A DNA stretch of 64,000 bases. It comes from Candidatus Bathyarchaeia archaeon. GTDB lineage: Archaea; Thermoproteota; Bathyarchaeia; Bathyarchaeales; Bathycorpusculaceae. The DNA lies in the NCBI GenBank assembly GCA_050108095.1, contig JBNIDO010000004.1, positions 6,469 through 70,468 of the forward strand. Reading direction: 5' to 3'. Within the stretch, counting starts at the first letter, position 1. Each line of letters begins with the position of its first letter. Shown in pieces: positions 7,284 to 29,867 of the stretch. Under the pieces are notes generated by a model. The model made no database searches and was not told the origin of the DNA. It saw only the letters and a program-made list of their open reading frames with translations. The translations under genes were made by a program, and so were the position numbers.

Positions 7284-7404
7284 AGGCATTGGGTTGGACT
7301 ACTACCTGCCACGGCTTATATTTTCAGGCGAATTAGGGGTAGGTATTCGGATAGAAAATGATCATAGAAATCATTTCTTCTGAAAAATAAAAGGAAGAAA
7401 AAAC

Positions 7405-9936
7405 ATGAAAAAACACAAATTTAAGTTTGCAAAAGAAACCAGAAACTACGCAAAATTAACGACAATTTCTTTGATTCTGCTACTAACCGCTACTATGATA
7501 ATCGCAATCGTGCCAACTGTTCGCGCTGACGACATAGAAACCTTTGCTCTTATTAGCGTCTCACCTAACCCTATAGGTGTTGAGCAGAGAGCGTTTGTTA
7601 ATTTTTGGCTCAGCAACCCTCCATTATACGCAGCTGTTACAAACGACATACGCTGGCAAGGCTTTACGCTTACAATCACCAAGCCCGATGGAACCAACCA
7701 AACGATGGGACCATATGAATCCGATTCAGCTGGAATGGCTTATGTCACGTACACCCCTGACAAAGTAGGTACATACTACTTCCAGTTCTCTTTTGCTGGG
7801 CAAAATCATACAGGGAATTATTACAAACCAAGCACAAGCCAAAGAGTTGAGCTTACAGTACAGGAAGAACCAATCGCTATGTGGCAAGGGTCCGCTCTTC
7901 CAATAGACTACTGGCAACGTCCAATAGAAGCGGAAAACCGAGAGTGGTCATCAATTTCAGGAAACTGGCTAATGAGCACTTACAATACAACTGGTCCCTA
8001 TAATCCATACACTAATGCACCGAACACCGCACACATCGTTTGGACAAAACAAGGAGAAATCGGTGGCATCGCTGGAGGAGAGTATGGCAGCACAAGTTAT
8101 AGCACAGAATACTACTTCAACAGTTTCTACCCACCAATAATCCTGAATGGACGGCTATACTACAACGAAATGACAAGCCCACGCTATGGATTCTATTGCG
8201 TCGATTTACGTACCGGAGAACAACTATGGTGGCATAATTCTACTGCTCCAGCAGCACAACAAAAGATCGCAAATTGGATTGGCTGCGAATATTATCCAGG
8301 AATAGACATGGGACAGATATTGAATTTCGAGACACCGAATCAAGCTGGAACATATGCATACCTATGGAGCCTCGGATCTCAGTATTCGATGTACGACGCG
8401 TTTACAGGAAATTGGATTTGCGACTTTGACAACGTCTCAGCCGGTACCCCCACGTTAGACTCAAATGGCAATCTTATAACCTACATCCTTGACGGAAAAA
8501 ACAATTGGTTGGCAATGTGGAACTCAACTAAATGTATTTTGAAACAACAATCATTGACTTCATGGATATTCCAAAATGCTCCAGGAGATTTAACAATGCC
8601 TGAGGATGTTTGGATCTGGTCACCTCCTGTAGGTGAAACACTTGACTGGCGAAAAGGAATAGAATGGAATGTAACGGTGCCAAACGTAGAGTACGCTCCT
8701 TCAGGTTTAGTACAATCGATAAGCAAAATTGGTTCTGATGTAATACTCGCTACTGTACAAAGTCAAAGAGCACGCTTAGCTGAAACGATGGGTTGGCAAC
8801 TGGAAATAGGCTATGACGCAAATACAGGAGATGTGCTATGGGGGCCAATCAATCGAACATGCGTTGAAGGATCAAATATGCTGGATTTCCAAGGGCCTAT
8901 GGGTGAGGGAGTCTTCACCGAGTACCATAGAGATACAAAGGAATGGTATGGCTATGACGTATACACAGGGAAACAGTTATGGGGTCCAACCGAACCCACC
9001 GAAAGTGACTGGGGTACATTCACCGCCGGTTATGTTATCGCTGACGGCAAGTTTTACACTGCAGGCTACGACGGAATGGTATATGCATATGATATCAAGA
9101 CGGGCGACCTGTCATGGGAGTGGTATGTAGGAAGTAGCGGGTTTGAAACAGGACTCGGTACATGGGCACTCCAAGGTGGTATTACGGATGCCGATGGAAA
9201 AATCTACGTACGTACAGGTCAACACAGTCCCACTCAGCCTTTGGAAAGAGGCGACAGACTATTTTGCCTCAACACCACTACAGGAGAAGAATTATGGAAC
9301 ATCTCGGGATGTATGCAGCAACCAGCGCCAATCGCAGATGGATACCTTGTTACATGGAACTACTATGATGGGCAAATATACTGCTTTGGAAAAGGACAAA
9401 CAGCCACTACAGTCTCAGCATCACCTGATGTTTCAGTGCATGGAAATAGCATACTGATTAAAGGCACTGTTCTCGATCAGTCTCCTGGTGAAACCTGTCT
9501 AGGCATACCTGCAAAAGGAACCCCTGCAATCTCTGACGACAGCATGAGTGAATGGATGGAATACTTATACATGCAGAAACCGCAACCAACAAATGCAACC
9601 GGGGTACAAGTTACGTTAAGCGTTGTGGATTCAAACGGGAACTACAGAGAGATCGGTAGAACAACAAGTGATGCTAACGGTTTTTATAGTTACAATTGGA
9701 CACCTGATATCGAAGGTAAATACACGCTTTATGCTTCCTTTGCTGGCTCTGAATCTTACTGGCCCTCGCATGCTGTAACCGCTTTCAACGTCTCTCCGGC
9801 ACCTGCTACTGTTCAACCTACTGCTACACCGCAATCAGTTGCTGATACCTACTTCATACCCGCAACCATTGGCATTATACTGGCAATAATCATAGTCGGT
9901 TTAACCACTTTACTAGTGCTCAGAAAAAGACCATAA
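7405..9936 (+). CDS. PQQ-like beta-propeller cell-surface protein (paralog 1), C-terminal TM anchor
   Basis: Signal peptide; SPNPIGV, YWQRPI, CVDLRTGEQLW, VYAYDIKTGDLSW repeats; C-terminal TM plus RKRP. Confidence 0.85.
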   Translation: MKKHKFKFAKETRNYAKLTTISLILLLTATMIIAIVPTVRADDIETFALISVSPNPIGVEQRAFVNFWLSNPPLYAAVTNDIRWQGFTLTITKPDGTNQTMGPYESDSAGMAYVTYTPDKVGTYYFQFSFAGQNHTGNYYKPSTSQRVELTVQEEPIAMWQGSALPIDYWQRPIEAENREWSSISGNWLMSTYNTTGPYNPYTNAPNTAHIVWTKQGEIGGIAGGEYGSTSYSTEYYFNSFYPPIILNGRLYYNEMTSPRYGFYCVDLRTGEQLWWHNSTAPAAQQKIANWIGCEYYPGIDMGQILNFETPNQAGTYAYLWSLGSQYSMYDAFTGNWICDFDNVSAGTPTLDSNGNLITYILDGKNNWLAMWNSTKCILKQQSLTSWIFQNAPGDLTMPEDVWIWSPPVGETLDWRKGIEWNVTVPNVEYAPSGLVQSISKIGSDVILATVQSQRARLAETMGWQLEIGYDANTGDVLWGPINRTCVEGSNMLDFQGPMGEGVFTEYHRDTKEWYGYDVYTGKQLWGPTEPTESDWGTFTAGYVIADGKFYTAGYDGMVYAYDIKTGDLSWEWYVGSSGFETGLGTWALQGGITDADGKIYVRTGQHSPTQPLERGDRLFCLNTTTGEELWNISGCMQQPAPIADGYLVTWNYYDGQIYCFGKGQTATTVSASPDVSVHGNSILIKGTVLDQSPGETCLGIPAKGTPAISDDSMSEWMEYLYMQKPQPTNATGVQVTLSVVDSNGNYREIGRTTSDANGFYSYNWTPDIEGKYTLYASFAGSESYWPSHAVTAFNVSPAPATVQPTATPQSVADTYFIPATIGIILAIIIVGLTTLLVLRKRP

Positions 9937-9983
9937 AAGGAATCCATTTTTTCCTTTTTTTATAAAAGAAAAAGCTGCGAAGC

Positions 9984-10090
9984 GGGCTGAGTGGACTCTG
10001 GAATAAAACCAACAGATCATGGTCAAGGATGGTTTAGTTGCATTTTCCATTCTTATCTTCCTTAAGGGTTTCCAGAATCCCAGCAAACCC
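9984..10090. ncRNA. Putative structured non-coding element, copy A, 3' of propeller gene 1
   Basis: Outer stem GGACTCTGGAA/TTCCAGAATCC, inner stem AAGGATGG/CCATTCTT; 20 nt (10035-10054) identical to 24901-24920. Confidence 0.6.
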
Positions 10091-21936: not shown

Positions 21937-22140
21937 AGGTTTCGTTTTTTTATCGCCGTCTTGATGACGAAACGATTTCCCGTACTAATATCTTTATGGG
22001 TCATATATGCTTTGTATTTTTTAAACTAAAAAACGTAATTATTGTTTATTATTTTCTGTATAAATCATTATTGTAGAAATTATTAAATACTAGTTGCAAA
22101 GAAATAACGAGCCACAACTATTAAGGAGAAAATAAAAAAC

Positions 22141-24783
22141 TTGAAACTATCTAAAAAGAAAATGATTGCTATCGCAATTGCTATGATTCTGACAATATCT
22201 ATAGGAACAGTCGCAACATTCTTGCCAACAGCTTTAGCACATGATCCTCCAATTGAGTGGCCAACTTATGCGTTGATTTCCGTTGCGCCTAACCCAGTCG
22301 GTGTAGGGCAACAAGCGAATGTCTTCTTGATGCTCACTAACTACTATTTTGAATCACAGTACGGGACAGACAATCTTAGGTTCCATAACTACAAGCTTAC
22401 TATTACTGCACCTAACGGTGAGGTCACTACTCAGACTTTTGACACCATTCGAGACACAACAGCAGCTCAGCTTGCAACGTTTACTCCAGACCAAGTCGGC
22501 ACCTACAATTTAACTTTCACCTACCCAGGAGAAGACTACGCTTCAGACGCAGGCAATGCCTACGTAGGTGACAGTTACCTGCCAAGCAGTGCATCAACTA
22601 CTCTGACTGTACAAGAAGACCCTATACCTGACGCAATAACCAGCTATCCACTGCCTTCTGAATACTGGACACGACCAATCTATGGCGAAAACACTGATTG
22701 GTGGAGCATCTCATCGAACTGGCTAGGCACTGGCGCACCCAACTATGGTGGCTATGCTTCTTCTGGTTCAGCACAGATGGGCTTCATGGGTGGCGAGGCA
22801 ATGTTCCCAGGCGATGCTATCGGTTCTCAGACTAGCCACGTTATGTGGACTAAAGCTCTGCAAGCCGGTGGTGTGGTCGGCGGCGATAACCTTGCCATTC
22901 AGGGCAATACATACTTTGACGGCTCAGCTTACATCATCAGATACGACAACCCCATAATACTTAATGGCAAAATCTACTACAAGGAACCAATAAACTTCGG
23001 ATATAGCAACAATGCTGGGCACGGACCACTAGCGTGCGTCGATTTACGTACAGGCGAAGTACTCTGGGAAAAAGACATACCTACGCTGTCTTTCGGTTAT
23101 ATGATGAACGTACAAACACAAAATGAACACGGCGTTTGCCAACCAATTCTGTATGCTAAAAGCGGCACTACTTGGCTTGGTTACGATGCGGACACAGGAG
23201 CAAGTCTAGTTAACATAACTAATGTTCCATCCGGTGCAAAGGCTATGGGTCCAGACGGCGAATACTTACAATATGTCTTGGCTAATGCAGGCAATGCTGA
23301 AGTTCCTGATTGGCGTTTATGTCAGTGGAACTTAACTAAAGTCTTCATGCCAGGTACTACTGCGGCACCTAAATTCGGGACTTTGGACGGAGGCGCATCT
23401 ACGAGCTATGACTGGAACATTTCGGTATCTTGGCTGAACACAATGCCGACAAAAACAGCGGGAACTAACCCTGCAAATATAGTCCTATCTGAATACGGAG
23501 ACGGTATCTTATGCTACAACGGTACACTGCCTTCAAACGGTGAAAACAGATTATTCTCTACAATAAGCCAATCTCCATACACGTACTTCTTTGTCAACCT
23601 CGACTCCTCTAAAGGTGCAGTCGGTTCAGTATCATGGTGGAAGACACTTCAGCCTCCAGCAAACAACTACACTGTTGTCCAAGCCGGAGTTGACTGGGAA
23701 AACCGTGTTTTCCTTCAATCGCTAAAAGAAGGCATCATATGGGTAGCCTACAGCTTAGATTCCGGTGAAAAACTCTGGCAATCTGAACCTCAAGCAGCAT
23801 TTGACTACTACGGCAGCCCTAGCGCAGGCATATTATCTGGCCAAGTTGCTTACGGCAGACTCTACAGCATGGCAATGGCGGGCATACTATACTGCTATGA
23901 TATGAAATCAGGTGATCTACTCTGGACTTATGGTAACGGCGGTGAAGGCAACAGCACAAATAGCGGTTTGAACTGGCCATACGGCAACATCCCAACATTC
24001 GTCAACGCAATCGGCAACGACGTAGTCTACTTAGTTACAAGTGAACATACTTGGACATCTCCGATCTATAAAGGCGGCTTAGCACGTGCAGTTAATGCAA
24101 CTGACGGCACAGAAATCTGGACCATCTCATCAGCTACCATGGAATTCGGCAGCACAAGCTATGCTATCGCTGACGGCTTCTCAACTTGGTTTAACAGTTA
24201 TGACAGTTCAGTCTATGTGGTTGGCAGAGGTGCAAGCAGAACTACTGTAACAGCCCCCGATTTGGGCGCAGCACCCGGACAAAGCATCGTCATCAGAGGC
24301 ACAGTCACTGACTTATCTAGCGGTACCACACAGGATGAGCAAGCAGCAAGATTCCCCGACGGTGTTGCATGTGTTTCAGATGATAGCATGAAAGACTGGA
24401 TGGGCTACGTCTACCAGCAGAAACCCATACCCGCAAATGCTAGTGGTGTCACAGTGACTCTATCAGTTGTTGACTCAAACGGCAACTACCGCAACATCGG
24501 CGAAACACAAACTGACCTAACAGGCGCATACAGCTACCGATGGATCCCAGACATTTCAGGCCAATACCTACTATACGCATCATTCGCTGGAACCAACGGC
24601 TACTGGCCATCATCAGCAGAAACCAGCTTTGCAGTCGACGAACCCGCACCCACAGAACCTACACCACAACCACAAACAAACGTAGCAACAACATCCGATT
24701 TACTGACGTATGTCGGCGCAGCCATAGCTATCAACATCATCCTCATGGCAATCATAGCATTCTTAGTGCTGAAAAAACGGTGA
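22141..24783 (+). CDS. PQQ-like beta-propeller cell-surface protein (paralog 2), C-terminal TM anchor
   Basis: APNPVGVG, YWTRPI, CVDLRTGEVLW, LYCYDMKSGDLLW; AAGGAGA SD; TM plus KKR. Confidence 0.85.
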   Translation: MKLSKKKMIAIAIAMILTISIGTVATFLPTALAHDPPIEWPTYALISVAPNPVGVGQQANVFLMLTNYYFESQYGTDNLRFHNYKLTITAPNGEVTTQTFDTIRDTTAAQLATFTPDQVGTYNLTFTYPGEDYASDAGNAYVGDSYLPSSASTTLTVQEDPIPDAITSYPLPSEYWTRPIYGENTDWWSISSNWLGTGAPNYGGYASSGSAQMGFMGGEAMFPGDAIGSQTSHVMWTKALQAGGVVGGDNLAIQGNTYFDGSAYIIRYDNPIILNGKIYYKEPINFGYSNNAGHGPLACVDLRTGEVLWEKDIPTLSFGYMMNVQTQNEHGVCQPILYAKSGTTWLGYDADTGASLVNITNVPSGAKAMGPDGEYLQYVLANAGNAEVPDWRLCQWNLTKVFMPGTTAAPKFGTLDGGASTSYDWNISVSWLNTMPTKTAGTNPANIVLSEYGDGILCYNGTLPSNGENRLFSTISQSPYTYFFVNLDSSKGAVGSVSWWKTLQPPANNYTVVQAGVDWENRVFLQSLKEGIIWVAYSLDSGEKLWQSEPQAAFDYYGSPSAGILSGQVAYGRLYSMAMAGILYCYDMKSGDLLWTYGNGGEGNSTNSGLNWPYGNIPTFVNAIGNDVVYLVTSEHTWTSPIYKGGLARAVNATDGTEIWTISSATMEFGSTSYAIADGFSTWFNSYDSSVYVVGRGASRTTVTAPDLGAAPGQSIVIRGTVTDLSSGTTQDEQAARFPDGVACVSDDSMKDWMGYVYQQKPIPANASGVTVTLSVVDSNGNYRNIGETQTDLTGAYSYRWIPDISGQYLLYASFAGTNGYWPSSAETSFAVDEPAPTEPTPQPQTNVATTSDLLTYVGAAIAINIILMAIIAFLVLKKR

Positions 24784-24850
24784 TAAAACAAAAAAATCAA
24801 TTTTCCCTTTTCCCTTTTTTTGGGAACAATAAATGCATTGGCAAAAATGT

Positions 24851-24956
24851 GGCTGAGTGGGCTCTGGATAATGATATTGCAGTCGCGGTTGAAGAATGGT
24901 TAGTTGCATTTTCCATTCTTTTCTTCCTTTATTGGTTCCAGAGCCCCAGCAAACCC
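24851..24956. ncRNA. Putative structured non-coding element, copy B, 3' of propeller gene 2
   Basis: GCTG-AGT-GGGCTCTGGA/TCCAGAGCCC-CAGC outer stem; AAGAATGG/CCATTCTT inner stem; homologous to 9984-10090. Confidence 0.6.
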
Positions 24957-25086
24957 CTAAAGCAATACGGCTCAGAAACACCTGCTGTTTTAACTTTAAA
25001 CTTAATGTAGCAAATCGGCTGTATCCTCTTTAATCCTGCAGGGACAATTAACAAAAATTAAATACGGTAAAGGCGACTTCTTAACG

Positions 25087-26061
25087 ATGAAACGACTCTA
25101 CTTGTGCATAGCATTAATCTGCATCATAGCAGCACCAAGCTTAGCATTATTCGCTTATTTGTACACAGGCAATGGCGGGCAGGAAGATGAGCCGTTTTTA
25201 CCCCAAAGAGAAAGCGCAATTCCAAGCAGCGCAGTTAAAATTACACCCCAGACCGACACCAATCCTCCAAAATCGCTTTCACCACAATACTACGACCCAA
25301 TCCCCGTGGAAGGGCCAGTTAACACTGCAGGCGCAGAGGACTCAGCCTTTATTCTCTCTAACGGTTTAACACTTTACTTCTTTTTCACACCTGACATGAA
25401 CGTTCCCGTGGAAACTCAAGTCTTAGACCCCACAGTCGGCATCTACGTTTCTTACAAAGTCAATGGTTCTTGGACAGAACCAGAACGAGTGCTGCTGCAA
25501 GATAGCGGAAAACTTGCGTTAGACGGCTGCGAAGTAATCCAAGACAACATGATCTATTTCTGCTCAGCACGGGAAGGCTACACTGGGCTTCACTGGTTTA
25601 AAGCAGAGTTTGTTGATGGGAAATGGCAAAACTGGGTAAACATCGACAGCTTCCTGAAATACTCAGAGTATGAGGTAGGCGAACTCTACATTACAGGTGA
25701 TTGCAGCGAATTGTATTTTCACTCAAACCGGACTGGCGGCGTCGGAGGCTTGGATATTTGGGTTTGCCACAAAATGGGCGAAGAATGGTCTAGTCCCCAA
25801 AACGTGCTTGCAATCAATTCACCGAACGATGAAGGCTGGCCTGCTTTAAGCCCAGATGGAAACGAGCTGTGGTTTACCAGAGACTACGCTGTCTGGCAAT
25901 CCGTTAAGGTTGGTGGTGAGTGGCAGGCTCCGGAGAAGGTGTTCTCGCCGCTTGCCGGTGAACCATCCGTAGACGATTCTGGGAACGTGTATTTTACGCA
26001 TCATTTTTTGGTTAATGAGACCCTTGTTGAAGCGGACATTTATGTAGCTTACAAACGCTAA
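25087..26061 (+). CDS. Membrane-anchored PD40/TolB-like beta-propeller protein
   Basis: N-terminal TM; ELYFHSNRTGGVGGLDIW, INSPNDEGWPALSPDGNELWF. Confidence 0.8.
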   Translation: MKRLYLCIALICIIAAPSLALFAYLYTGNGGQEDEPFLPQRESAIPSSAVKITPQTDTNPPKSLSPQYYDPIPVEGPVNTAGAEDSAFILSNGLTLYFFFTPDMNVPVETQVLDPTVGIYVSYKVNGSWTEPERVLLQDSGKLALDGCEVIQDNMIYFCSAREGYTGLHWFKAEFVDGKWQNWVNIDSFLKYSEYEVGELYITGDCSELYFHSNRTGGVGGLDIWVCHKMGEEWSSPQNVLAINSPNDEGWPALSPDGNELWFTRDYAVWQSVKVGGEWQAPEKVFSPLAGEPSVDDSGNVYFTHHFLVNETLVEADIYVAYKR

Positions 26062-29149: not shown

Positions 29150-29722
29150 CTACATATACATCCTAAGCACTTTGCTTTTCTGGAGCAAATAAAGGGCGAC
29201 CCCGCTTATTATCAGTTCAGGCAAGAGGTAGCTGCCATTGTAGACTGCTGAGTAAACGTATGGGTTTATGGTGGGTGCATAGACAGGTCCCCAGTAGAAC
29301 ACGCCTGCGACGAAATGCATAATGAAGCGTCCGCTGATACCGACTGCGGCTCCCAATACTGGATACTTAGGGAAGAAGCCAGATAAGCCCAACACACCGA
29401 ACGCAAGCGGGTAGTCGAGTAGCACCTGGATTATTGCATCTGGCACTGGAGCGATGTAGGGTAGAGCTGCAAATTGTATTAAGCCATAGATGACTCCTGC
29501 GGTTATGCCGACTTTGGGTCCGCGTCGAAGCGACAGCCAAATAATCGGCACCATAGACGCCAAAGTGATTGAGCCGCCCTGTGGCAGGGTGTAGATGATT
29601 ATGAAGCTAAGAGCTGTGCCTAAGGCGATAAAAATCGCCATTTCAGCTAAAACTCGTGGGTTTTTGAAGGATTTTTGATATTTACTTGATTGGTTTATAG
29701 ATTCTGGTTTGTTTGTTTGCAC
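29150..29722 (-). CDS. thiT: Energy-coupled thiamine transporter S component ThiT
   Basis: LAEMAIFIAL, LPQGGSIT, QVLLDYPLAF, RFIMHFVAGVFYW, YSAVYNGSYL; TPP riboswitch upstream. Confidence 0.9.
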   Translation of the reverse strand: MQTNKPESINQSSKYQKSFKNPRVLAEMAIFIALGTALSFIIIYTLPQGGSITLASMVPIIWLSLRRGPKVGITAGVIYGLIQFAALPYIAPVPDAIIQVLLDYPLAFGVLGLSGFFPKYPVLGAAVGISGRFIMHFVAGVFYWGPVYAPTINPYVYSAVYNGSYLLPELIISGVALYLLQKSKVLRMYM

Positions 29723-29726
29723 TTGT

Positions 29727-29816
29727 TTTCCCTCCGCCAGTATTACCTGGGTCAGGTTCGCAGGGTCGACAGAAGGTACTGTCCTCTCAGCCGGGTCCTA
29801 TCCCAGCTCCCCAAGA
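29727..29816 (-). ncRNA. TPP riboswitch
   Basis: Minus strand GGGGAGC..CTGAGAGG..GACCCT..AACCTGACCCAGGTAATACTGGCGGAGGGA, directly upstream of thiT. Confidence 0.92.
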
Positions 29817-29867
29817 ACTGAAAAAAGTAAGCCACAGTGGAGAATATAGGTTTTGCGTCGTTTGCCT

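Follow-up and report, generated by a model that had tools for sequence, protein, structure and literature searches.

The window analysed here is a stretch of 64,000 nucleotides (nt) from a Candidatus Bathyarchaeia archaeon (C4:6469-70468), taken from an assembly of 2.8 Mb in 146 contigs. It contains two paralogous genes for large propeller proteins, gene A and gene B, whose products share 34% amino acid identity, and each gene is followed on the same strand by a copy of a non-coding element of 106 nt, referred to as copy A and copy B (Table 1). Computational analysis of the element family, its gene linkage, its RNA structure and strand, the geometry of its ends, the splicing enzymes of the archaeon and the complementarity of the element to ribosome-binding sites (RBSs) suggests that the element encodes a small RNA that is excised through a bulge-helix-bulge (BHB) splice motif.

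Copies A and B align across about 106 nt. The first-pass annotation of this DNA had described them from the letters of the window, and its anatomy is borne out in every feature. Both copies exist, at nearly the coordinates given there, and both contain the outer stem GCTG-AGT-GG(A/G)CTCTGGA / TCCAGA(A/G)(T/C)CC-CAGC with its 3-nt bulge, the inner stem AAG(G/A)ATGG / CCATTCTT, a CTTCCTT motif and an AAACC end. The run once counted as 20 identical nucleotides is present, with a corrected length of 21 nt (TTAGTTGCATTTTCCATTCTT). The view that this conservation is non-coding also stands, because the frame that is open in copy B (open reading frame (ORF) 24540-25010) meets a TAA in copy A (CGG GCT GAG TGG ACT CTG GAA TAA) and the copies differ by indels; coding sequence is ruled out on these grounds. 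What had been missed is that the outer stem with its 3-nt bulge, taken together with the AAACC tail, constitutes a BHB splice motif, and a specific processing mechanism is therefore available.

Table 1. Propeller genes, element copies and their parts in the window, followed by the forms of the C/U-rich tract (h, outer helix; H, 4-bp helix; h', inner helix; P2, hairpin; f7, second family of the order)
Feature	Position	Strand	Description
RBS of gene A	7385-7404	+	AAAUAAAAGGAAGAAAAAAC; purine-rich, complementary to CU tract of elements
Gene A	7405-9936	+	843 amino acids (aa); PQQ_2 propeller, Ig-like Big_3_5 domain, C-terminal transmembrane anchor ending ...LRKRP
T-rich run	9947-9961	+	T6-CC-T7, between gene A stop and copy A
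Copy A	9984-10089	+	106 nt; full covariance-model match, cmsearch 107.3 bits, E 1e-24
Copy A, 5' BHB half	9984-9992	+	h GG 9984-9985, H GCUG 9986-9989, bulge AGU 9990-9992
Copy A, h' 5' strand	9993-10002	+	GGACUCUGGA; pairs with 10071-10080, covariation including A-U vs G-C at first pair
Copy A, hairpin P2	10025-10054	+	AAGGAUGG 10025-10032, conserved loop UUUAGUUGCAUUUU 10033-10046, CCAUUCUU 10047-10054
Copy A, CU-rich tract	10055-10064	+	AUCUUCCUUA; unpaired; UCUUCCUU complementary to own gene's RBS AAGGAAGA
Copy A, 3' BHB half	10071-10089	+	h' UCCAGAAUCC 10071-10080, H CAGC 10081-10084, AAA 10085-10087, CC 10088-10089
RBS of gene B	22118-22140	+	..UUAAGGAGAAAAUAAAAAAC; purine-rich
Gene B	22141-24783	+	880-aa paralog of gene A
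Hairpin/T-run	24810-24826	+	UUCCC-U7-GGGAA, between gene B stop and copy B
Copy B	24850-24955	+	106 nt; full covariance-model match, cmsearch 118.5 bits
Copy B, 5' BHB half	24850-24868	+	h UG, H GCUG 24852-24855, AGU 24856-24858, h' GGGCUCUGGA 24859-24868
Copy B, P2 and tract	24892-24930	+	AAGAAUGG / loop UUAGUUGCAUUUU / CCAUUCUU; tract UUCUUCCUUU 24921-24930
Copy B, 3' BHB half	24937-24955	+	h' UCCAGAGCCC, H CAGC 24947-24950, AAA 24951-24953, CC 24954-24955
Tract, this genome			UUUUCUUCCUU
Tract, most of genus			UUUUCUCCU
Tract, family f7			UCACCUUC or UUCCUUC

The two copies belong to a much larger family than the pair described in the first-pass annotation. Searches of the whole assembly with BLAST and iterative nhmmer recover 29 copies on 22 contigs, with nhmmer E-values between 5e-29 and 5e-8, a similarity far beyond chance. 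Most copies are full length and have sharp ends (GGGCTGAG ... CAGCAAACC). Five loci (C139, C52, C42, C96 and C76_10128) hold the 3' half only, from the hairpin to AAACC, and one paralog of the same genome (C40:19652-22282, minus strand) retains just the first ~16 nt, GGGCTTAGAGGACTCT. The length of the element is ~95-115 nt. A covariance model built from 12 copies with two stems matches 47 of 61 genus genomes, in which copy numbers reach 28, and the element is absent from the other 14. In a sample spanning the order, 25 of 101 genomes match, representing 6 of 49 genera in two families, f1 and f7. Tandem arrangements also occur, in which two or three elements, often of different subtypes, lie 28-50 nt apart (L114 147-396, L115 301-554, L118 301-569, L121 301-575 and L141 4232-5130).

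No known RNA family accounts for the element. Rfam 15 returns nothing over it at the gathering score, nor at E<=10 in a search with five copies, and ARAGORN finds within the window only a tRNA-Lys that lies elsewhere; tRNA, transfer-messenger RNA and known RNA families are thereby ruled out. The literature searched contains no work that pairs Bathyarchaeia with a BHB element of this kind, so that the family is undescribed both there and in Rfam.

The genes upstream of the element form one protein family. Its members are surface-anchored proteins that combine a hydrophobic segment at the N-terminus, a PQQ_2 propeller, an Ig-like Big_3_5 domain and, at the C-terminus, a membrane anchor that finishes in ...LLLRKRP; they share 28-65% amino acid identity. 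By tblastn the genome encodes ~28 full-length paralogs, about 10 of them lacking the element, and when family loci are merged, 18 of 31 have a copy downstream. A same-strand ORF of 843-943 aa ends 47-69 nt upstream of 16 copies; copy A begins 47 nt, and the model match of copy B 66 nt, past the stop codon of its gene. About 10 further copies are isolated, away from propeller genes. The same layout of membrane-anchor gene, stop codon, T-run and element repeats across the genus, and in f7 many copies lie 48-58 nt past ORFs that end in a membrane anchor and a basic tail and that encode 839-929-aa homologues of the propeller proteins. The association with propeller genes proposed in the first-pass annotation is thus found in this genome, throughout the genus and in a second family. 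In the relatives G012, G059 and G001, tblastn yields 19-40 propeller matches per genome, including split or fragmentary loci and one in-frame TAG, which suggests that these surface-protein genes undergo rapid birth and death.

Conservation is higher in the element than in the gene before it. Averaged over 17 loci, nucleotide identity is 45-70% in the last 700 nt of the coding sequence and 59-75% in the element, and it falls to ~26% directly past AAACC. In single pairs, the stretch from stop codon to AAACC is 78-98% identical, compared with 50-65% for the coding sequence. The earlier contrast between diverged proteins and a conserved tail therefore holds in direction, but is less extreme at the nucleotide level than had been stated. 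A C-rich or T-run always separates the stop codon from the element, and this is conserved across the genus and in f7. The run behind gene A is likely to be an archaeal oligo-T terminator, which an element-bearing transcript must pass. In this genome and in f7 the gap can also be drawn as a hairpin, YUCCC-U7-GGGAR, with the T-run as its loop.

Covariation was computed on 82 distinct copies from many genomes, in an alignment fitted to the model, which favours the structure. Standard pairs occupy 94.0% of cells, compared with 88.2% in the shuffled controls and 30-54% with the 3' partners displaced; double-sided changes affect 16 of 25 pairs, and the observed values were reached in none of 500 shuffles. 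The outer stems are free of indels. Distant genera carry compensated changes in the inner helix, from CUCUGG/CCAGAG to CUUUGG/CCAAAG or to CUCCGGACAG/CUGUCCGGAG. One-sided changes in the stems, read on the plus strand, give G.U in 63 cases and A.C in 28, and the excess of G.U argues that the element is an RNA of the plus strand, the strand of the upstream gene. The inner-stem variants GAAUGG, GGAUGG, GGGUGG and GAGUGG pair with CCAUUC as plus-strand RNA only, and RNAalifold recovers the inner stem on that strand only. An RNA from the minus strand is rejected, because that strand does not form the inner stem and would turn the variants into C.A mismatches. The covariation, the G.U strand bias and the gene linkage support the proposal, already made in the first-pass annotation, of a selected structured RNA tied to the propeller family. 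The outcomes that would have spoken against it did not arise, as the element matches no known family, has far more than two copies and covaries.

The conserved ends of the element carry a distinctive geometry. As RNA, the 5' end reads GG (outer helix, h), GCUG (central helix, H), an AGU bulge and GGGCUCUGGA (inner helix, h'), and the 3' end reads UCCAGAGCCC (h'), CAGC (H), an AAA bulge and CC (h). The resulting layout has a 2-bp outer helix and a 10-bp inner helix and, between them, a 4-bp helix with a 3-nt bulge on either side, one on each strand. It fits the canonical archaeal hBHBh' definition, and all archaeal splicing endonucleases recognise this motif (PMC7714728). Scored over 92 distinct copies, each of the four H pairs GCUG/CAGC forms in 88-92 copies, with no indels; in the 82-copy set, H cells are paired in 98.8% of cases, with a C-G to U-A replacement at one pair. 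The 5' bulge is 3 nt long in all 92 copies (AGU in 41, AGA in 41, others in 10), the 3' bulge is AAA in 85, and the closing h pairs are G-C in 78 and 90 copies, respectively. The inner helix spans 10-13 bp and is 94% paired, with double changes at 6 of 10 pairs. The borders of conservation coincide with the BHB motif, and the single-sequence fold of copy B reproduces the 4-bp helix, the 3-nt bulge and the 10-bp stem.

The introns of tRNA-Trp (contig C6) and tRNA-Ser (contig C25) in this genome follow the same order, h-H-bulge-h' ... h'-H-bulge-h. In the element as in these introns, the 5' bulge adjoins the inner helix and the 3' bulge adjoins the outer helix. Since the exon junctions of the two tRNA introns fall after the second bulge nucleotide, the cuts in the element are predicted at GGGCUGAG^U and CAGCAA^ACC. 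The tRNA-Trp(CCA) gene itself (C6:57238-57377) has a 63-nt intron with C/D-box-like motifs (AAUGACGA, CUGA), and the central helix of its BHB contains a C.U mismatch.

The enzymes that such processing would require are encoded by this genome, which is clearly archaeal, with EndA, RtcB and intron-bearing tRNAs. Two EndA paralogs of 184 and 187 aa (genes at C9:53231-53467 and C61:10586-10840) each have N- and C-terminal domains, and one of the two, but not the other, has the histidine context that we take to be the catalytic one. By sequence the pair represents the two-subunit type of TACK archaea. Endonucleases of this (alpha-beta)2 type have a broad substrate range and accept canonical as well as relaxed BHBs (PMC7714728). 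The RtcB ligase is detected at 599 bits.

We propose, with a probability of roughly 60%, that the element is the source of an RNA of ~95 nt that is excised through its BHB, is probably circularised, and carries a hairpin and an RBS-complementary tract. A transcript would extend through the element, most simply by read-through from the propeller gene. The two-subunit endonuclease would then cut in both bulges, and RtcB would join the ends to give the ~95-nt RNA, probably a circle, with the flanks possibly re-joined. The predicted back-splice junction joins ...CCCCAGCAA to UGGGCUCUGG... (...CAGCAA to UGGGCU...), and the predicted flank junction joins ...GGGCUGAG to ACC... The released RNA would present a covarying hairpin, with UUUGCAUUU in its loop, and a single-stranded CU-rich tract. 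This tract would pair with the Shine-Dalgarno (SD) sequence and A-rich spacer of the propeller genes, and might thereby act on their translation, either in trans or in cis. The family, the link to propeller genes, the structure and strand of the RNA, the geometry of the BHB, the enzymes and the match to RBSs are computational results, and transcription, cleavage, circularisation and regulation are inferences from them. Among these, the geometry of the ends strongly suggests excision by the splicing endonuclease, and circularisation and a regulatory role at RBSs appear plausible.

The interior of the element provides the basis for the proposed role. Three features recur across genera, namely the covarying hairpin, a loop with UUUGCAUUU and, immediately 3' of the hairpin, a C/U-rich tract that stays unpaired. 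The P2 stem shows double changes at 8 of 9 pairs across genomes, with G.U on the plus strand, and the tract is unpaired in the consensus fold. The tract resembles the anti-Shine-Dalgarno tail of the 16S rRNA of this genome, GGAUCACCUCCU, and in f7 the form UCACCUUC likewise resembles the 16S tail UCACCUCC. The RBSs of propeller genes, such as AAAGGAGAAAA and AAAGGAAGAAAA, are long and rich in purines. Pairing of the tract with the start regions of the family has a median of -9.4 kcal/mol, compared with -5.0 kcal/mol in 2511 other ORFs (p=5.5e-11); a reversed tract gives no enrichment and a shuffled tract little. The run UUUUCUUCCUUU of copy B (24919-24930) is a perfect 12-nt complement of AAAGGAAGAAAA in the RBS of gene A (within 7385-7404), the tract of copy A pairs over 8 nt with its own gene, and in f7 one element matches its own gene perfectly over 11 nt (L137) and another matches a paralog over 12 nt. 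These complementarities support, without proving, an RBS-masking role of the tract.

Two other candidate interactions were not retained. The loop UUUAGUUGCAUUUU as a second targeting site shows no meaningful enrichment on family 5' regions (-7.9 vs -7.5). Genus relatives L052-L100 have a conserved (A/U)UGGAGAA motif 8-15 nt upstream of the element that is complementary to the internal CUUUUCUCC tract, and this complementarity could be an alternative pairing, a decoy or a coincidence; a GGAGAA / CUUUUCUCC pseudoknot or alternative pairing is not claimed, since copy-specific covariation is lacking and self pairing, at -10.10 kcal/mol, does not surpass cross pairing, at -9.74 kcal/mol (p=0.048).

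Several observations weigh against an excised, RBS-pairing RNA. The element is dispensable, being absent from 14 of the 61 genus genomes and from about 10 paralogs of this one. A strong T-run (T6-T7) stands between gene and element in every lineage, and read-through past it may therefore be rare. No convincing separate promoter is apparent either: A-rich boxes lie 14-29 nt upstream of the element at inconsistent spacing, and in f7 the outer helix leaves a promoter no room. The complementarity to RBSs is in part generic. Poly-U likewise shows enrichment on the A-rich 5' regions of the family, so that part of the tract signal reflects A-richness, and ~15% of other ORFs reach -8 kcal/mol. The tract shows no copy-by-copy covariation with the RBS of its own gene, and the commonest tract in this genome (CUUCC) best fits a minority RBS (GGAAG). 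Within the BHB itself, the outer helix of copy B has a U.C mismatch at its first pair, h' of copy A has a C.A mismatch, and the single-sequence fold of copy A favours a slightly different register for the outermost pairs. The outer helix in this genome is also short, comprising two conserved pairs plus about one; its extension averages 1.08 pairs, compared with 0.64 after shuffling (p=0.02). The doubt over this short helix is settled by f7, because there the flanks extend the helix copy by copy to 7-10 bp (for example AGAAAUG-element-CAUUUCU). Flank pairing in f7 is copy-specific, with -7.06 kcal/mol for self and -4.72 kcal/mol for cross combinations (p<0.0002), and the contiguous extra pairs number 4.1 for self and 1.9 for cross (p<0.0002).

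The copies of one genome also evolve in concert. The proteins of gene B and of a gene at C29 share 31% identity, compared with 91% for the two elements behind these genes. The closest homologue of gene B in another species, in turn, has 68% amino acid and 70-85% coding-sequence nucleotide identity to it, and its element is only 42-65% identical to copy B. Because element similarity does not follow gene similarity, the copies are concluded to be homogenised within a genome, through either gene conversion or turnover. The parts that persist across the order are the splice-motif ends and the tract.

These patterns have to be weighed against explanations that dispense with a functional excised RNA. 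A cis-acting structure of the 3' untranslated region (UTR) or terminator region, uncut by the endonuclease, could serve stability, 3'-end definition, termination control or mRNA localisation and bear only an incidental likeness to a BHB; in a variant, the cut is real but merely defines the 3' end of the mRNA, with no functional RNA excised. Such a structure would suit the constant place 47-69 nt past the stop codon, on the same strand and right behind the T-run, the terminator-like succession of a hairpin and a U/C-rich tract, and the weak outer helix of this genome. It is nonetheless unlikely, given that the 4-bp helix, the opposite 3-nt bulges and the GG/CC pairs are the most conserved parts of 92 copies from two families, that a copy-specific outer helix as in f7 is needless for a plain stability hairpin, and that ~10 copies stand apart from propeller genes. 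Even less probable, in our judgement, is a selfish, mobile or gene-converting repeat, similar to a miniature inverted-repeat transposable element (MITE) or a mobile BHB intron, that persists by spreading behind terminators and by homogenisation and has no cellular function. The range of 0 to 28 copies per genome, the stand-alone, tandem and truncated copies, the similarity of elements decoupled from that of their genes and the concerted evolution described above would all be expected of such a repeat, and Fujishima and colleagues reportedly proposed transposition of tRNA introns for Thermoproteales. However, the 92 copies have no flanking direct repeats of at least 4 nt and hence no target-site duplications, and empty spliced sites are missing from this genome, where GGCTGA[AG]ACC is found only in unrelated coding DNA. 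A MITE or transposon remnant is rejected on the lack of duplications and on the fixed position and orientation behind one gene family, both constant over two taxonomic families. Selection on the RNA is indicated, moreover, by the G.U-biased covariation and by the conservation of an unpaired tract. Spread of this kind can coexist with our proposal, as an excised RNA whose genes are homogenised.

The first-pass annotation had offered a recombination site as its alternative to an RNA. In this case the element would act as DNA, either as an attC-like site or as a homology anchor for shuffling surface paralogs, comparable to the Sma/Cla repeat behind Neisseria pilin loci. It is an imperfect inverted repeat with extrahelical bases, it lies 3' of cassette-like genes in one orientation and sometimes in arrays ~4 kb apart, the paralog identities look mosaic, and the copies evolve in concert, a pattern that implies some DNA-level exchange between copies. 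Integron attC sites have the core sites RYYYAAC ... GTTRRRY. The element has no such cores, with ends GGGCUGAG ... CAGCAAACC on the plus strand, GGUUUGCUG ... on the minus strand and no GTTRRRY; its spacing of 4-15 kb, with other genes in between, is unlike that of cassettes; and no linked recombinase turned up, in an analysis that included no search aimed at a recombinase or integrase. The great excess of G.U over A.C on one strand argues for RNA, as do the conserved single-stranded motifs inside the element, and a DNA-level site is very improbable. The last candidate, an H/ACA-type guide RNA or other ribonucleoprotein scaffold released from a BHB precursor, is the most remote. Its layout of lower stem, large internal loop and upper hairpin is present, with an ANA triplet (AAA) 14 nt past the loop; the 3' strand of h' and H measures 14 nt, with AAA behind it in 85 of 92 copies, sequence is conserved on both sides of the internal loop, and tRNA-Trp provides a precedent for a guide RNA within a BHB intron. 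Inspection of the alignment, however, reveals neither a kink-turn or K-loop (tandem G.A) in the upper hairpin nor an ACA, and nothing explains why one genome would carry ~30 near-identical guides. C/D boxes are equally absent from the alignment, with no RUGAUGA and with the sole CUGA lying within the 5' BHB half. C/D and H/ACA guides are rejected on these missing boxes and the missing K-turn, the AAA fitting just the ANA spacing rule.

Two other features were noted in the window. Directly downstream of copy B, a 324-aa ORF (25087-26061, plus strand) encodes a PD40 / WD40-like propeller repeat protein that falls outside the PQQ-propeller family. A thiamine pyrophosphate (TPP) riboswitch aptamer at 29713-29823 (minus strand) scores 60 bits, over the Rfam gathering score.

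The element sits behind the largest surface-protein family of an uncultured lineage, and an excised RNA would be a candidate for the post-transcriptional control of surface proteins in these archaea, in a concrete form with two cut sites and two junctions named. It would extend the splicing machinery to the making of a dedicated small RNA, probably circular, and the homogenisation within genomes makes the family a test case for the spread of splice-motif elements. A further possibility, which we offer tentatively and regard as rather unlikely, is that tens of near-identical circular RNAs, made by tRNA-type splicing from the tails of the surface-protein genes, mimic the anti-SD sequence and pair with RBSs throughout the paralog family. 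A propeller gene, once expressed, would in this way exert feedback on the translation of the others or exclude it, and BHB-linked mobility or gene conversion would keep the elements uniform. If true, this would amount to control of a variable cell-surface repertoire by circular RNA.

The proposed system shares features with several known classes, despite clear differences from each. MITEs, repetitive extragenic palindromes and their mosaic assemblies (REP/BIME) and attC sites are, like the element, short, multi-copy, imperfect inverted repeats that are intergenic and homogenised within a genome. The element departs from them in having neither target-site duplications nor attC cores, in its gene linkage and orientation, which are fixed across families, and in an RNA-type covariation biased towards G.U. 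Functional RNAs released through BHBs offer a closer parallel, with the excised or ligated product itself functional, as is proposed for the element. A C/D box guide is released from the tRNA-Trp intron, and Plagens and colleagues reportedly found that the permuted signal recognition particle (SRP) RNA of Thermoproteus is restored by circularisation. Unlike these RNAs, the interior of the element has no C/D boxes, SRP or other Rfam signature, and its putative role is RBS pairing.

Bacterial and archaeal small RNAs that mask SD sequences with C/U-rich loops, including those derived from 3' UTRs, are comparable to the element, whose CU-rich tract is complementary, in part generically, to SD and spacer of its putative targets and which likewise originates at the 3' end of an mRNA gene. 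In contrast to these, release of the RNA would fall to the tRNA-splicing enzymes, in place of RNase E-type cleavage or a separate promoter, and its product would probably be circular and encoded by tens of near-identical copies per genome.

Known substrates of archaeal splicing endonucleases are tRNAs, rRNAs, one mRNA family (cbf5) and one haloarchaeal 5' UTR (PMC7714728). The BHBs of tRNA introns, rRNA introns and 16S/23S processing stems have the same hBHBh' form as the element, with a 4-bp helix, opposite 3-nt bulges and flanking helices. As tRNA introns and pre-rRNAs are circularised after excision (PMC7714728), so would be the excised part of the element. In contrast to these BHBs, the element is multi-copy, has a conserved interior and resides in the non-coding tail of one protein-gene family. 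In setting it resembles the introns of cbf5 in Crenarchaeota and of Haloferax HVO_1309, where a BHB is part of the transcript of a protein gene beyond the translation machinery. In HVO_1309 the intron measures 46 nt, is located in the 5' UTR, has been detected in circular form and can be cleaved by EndA in vitro (PMC7714728). However, both of these introns are single-copy and located in a coding region or a 5' UTR, whereas the element lies 3' of the stop codon, beyond a T-run, and recurs behind ~18 paralogs with a conserved hairpin and an anti-SD-like tract.

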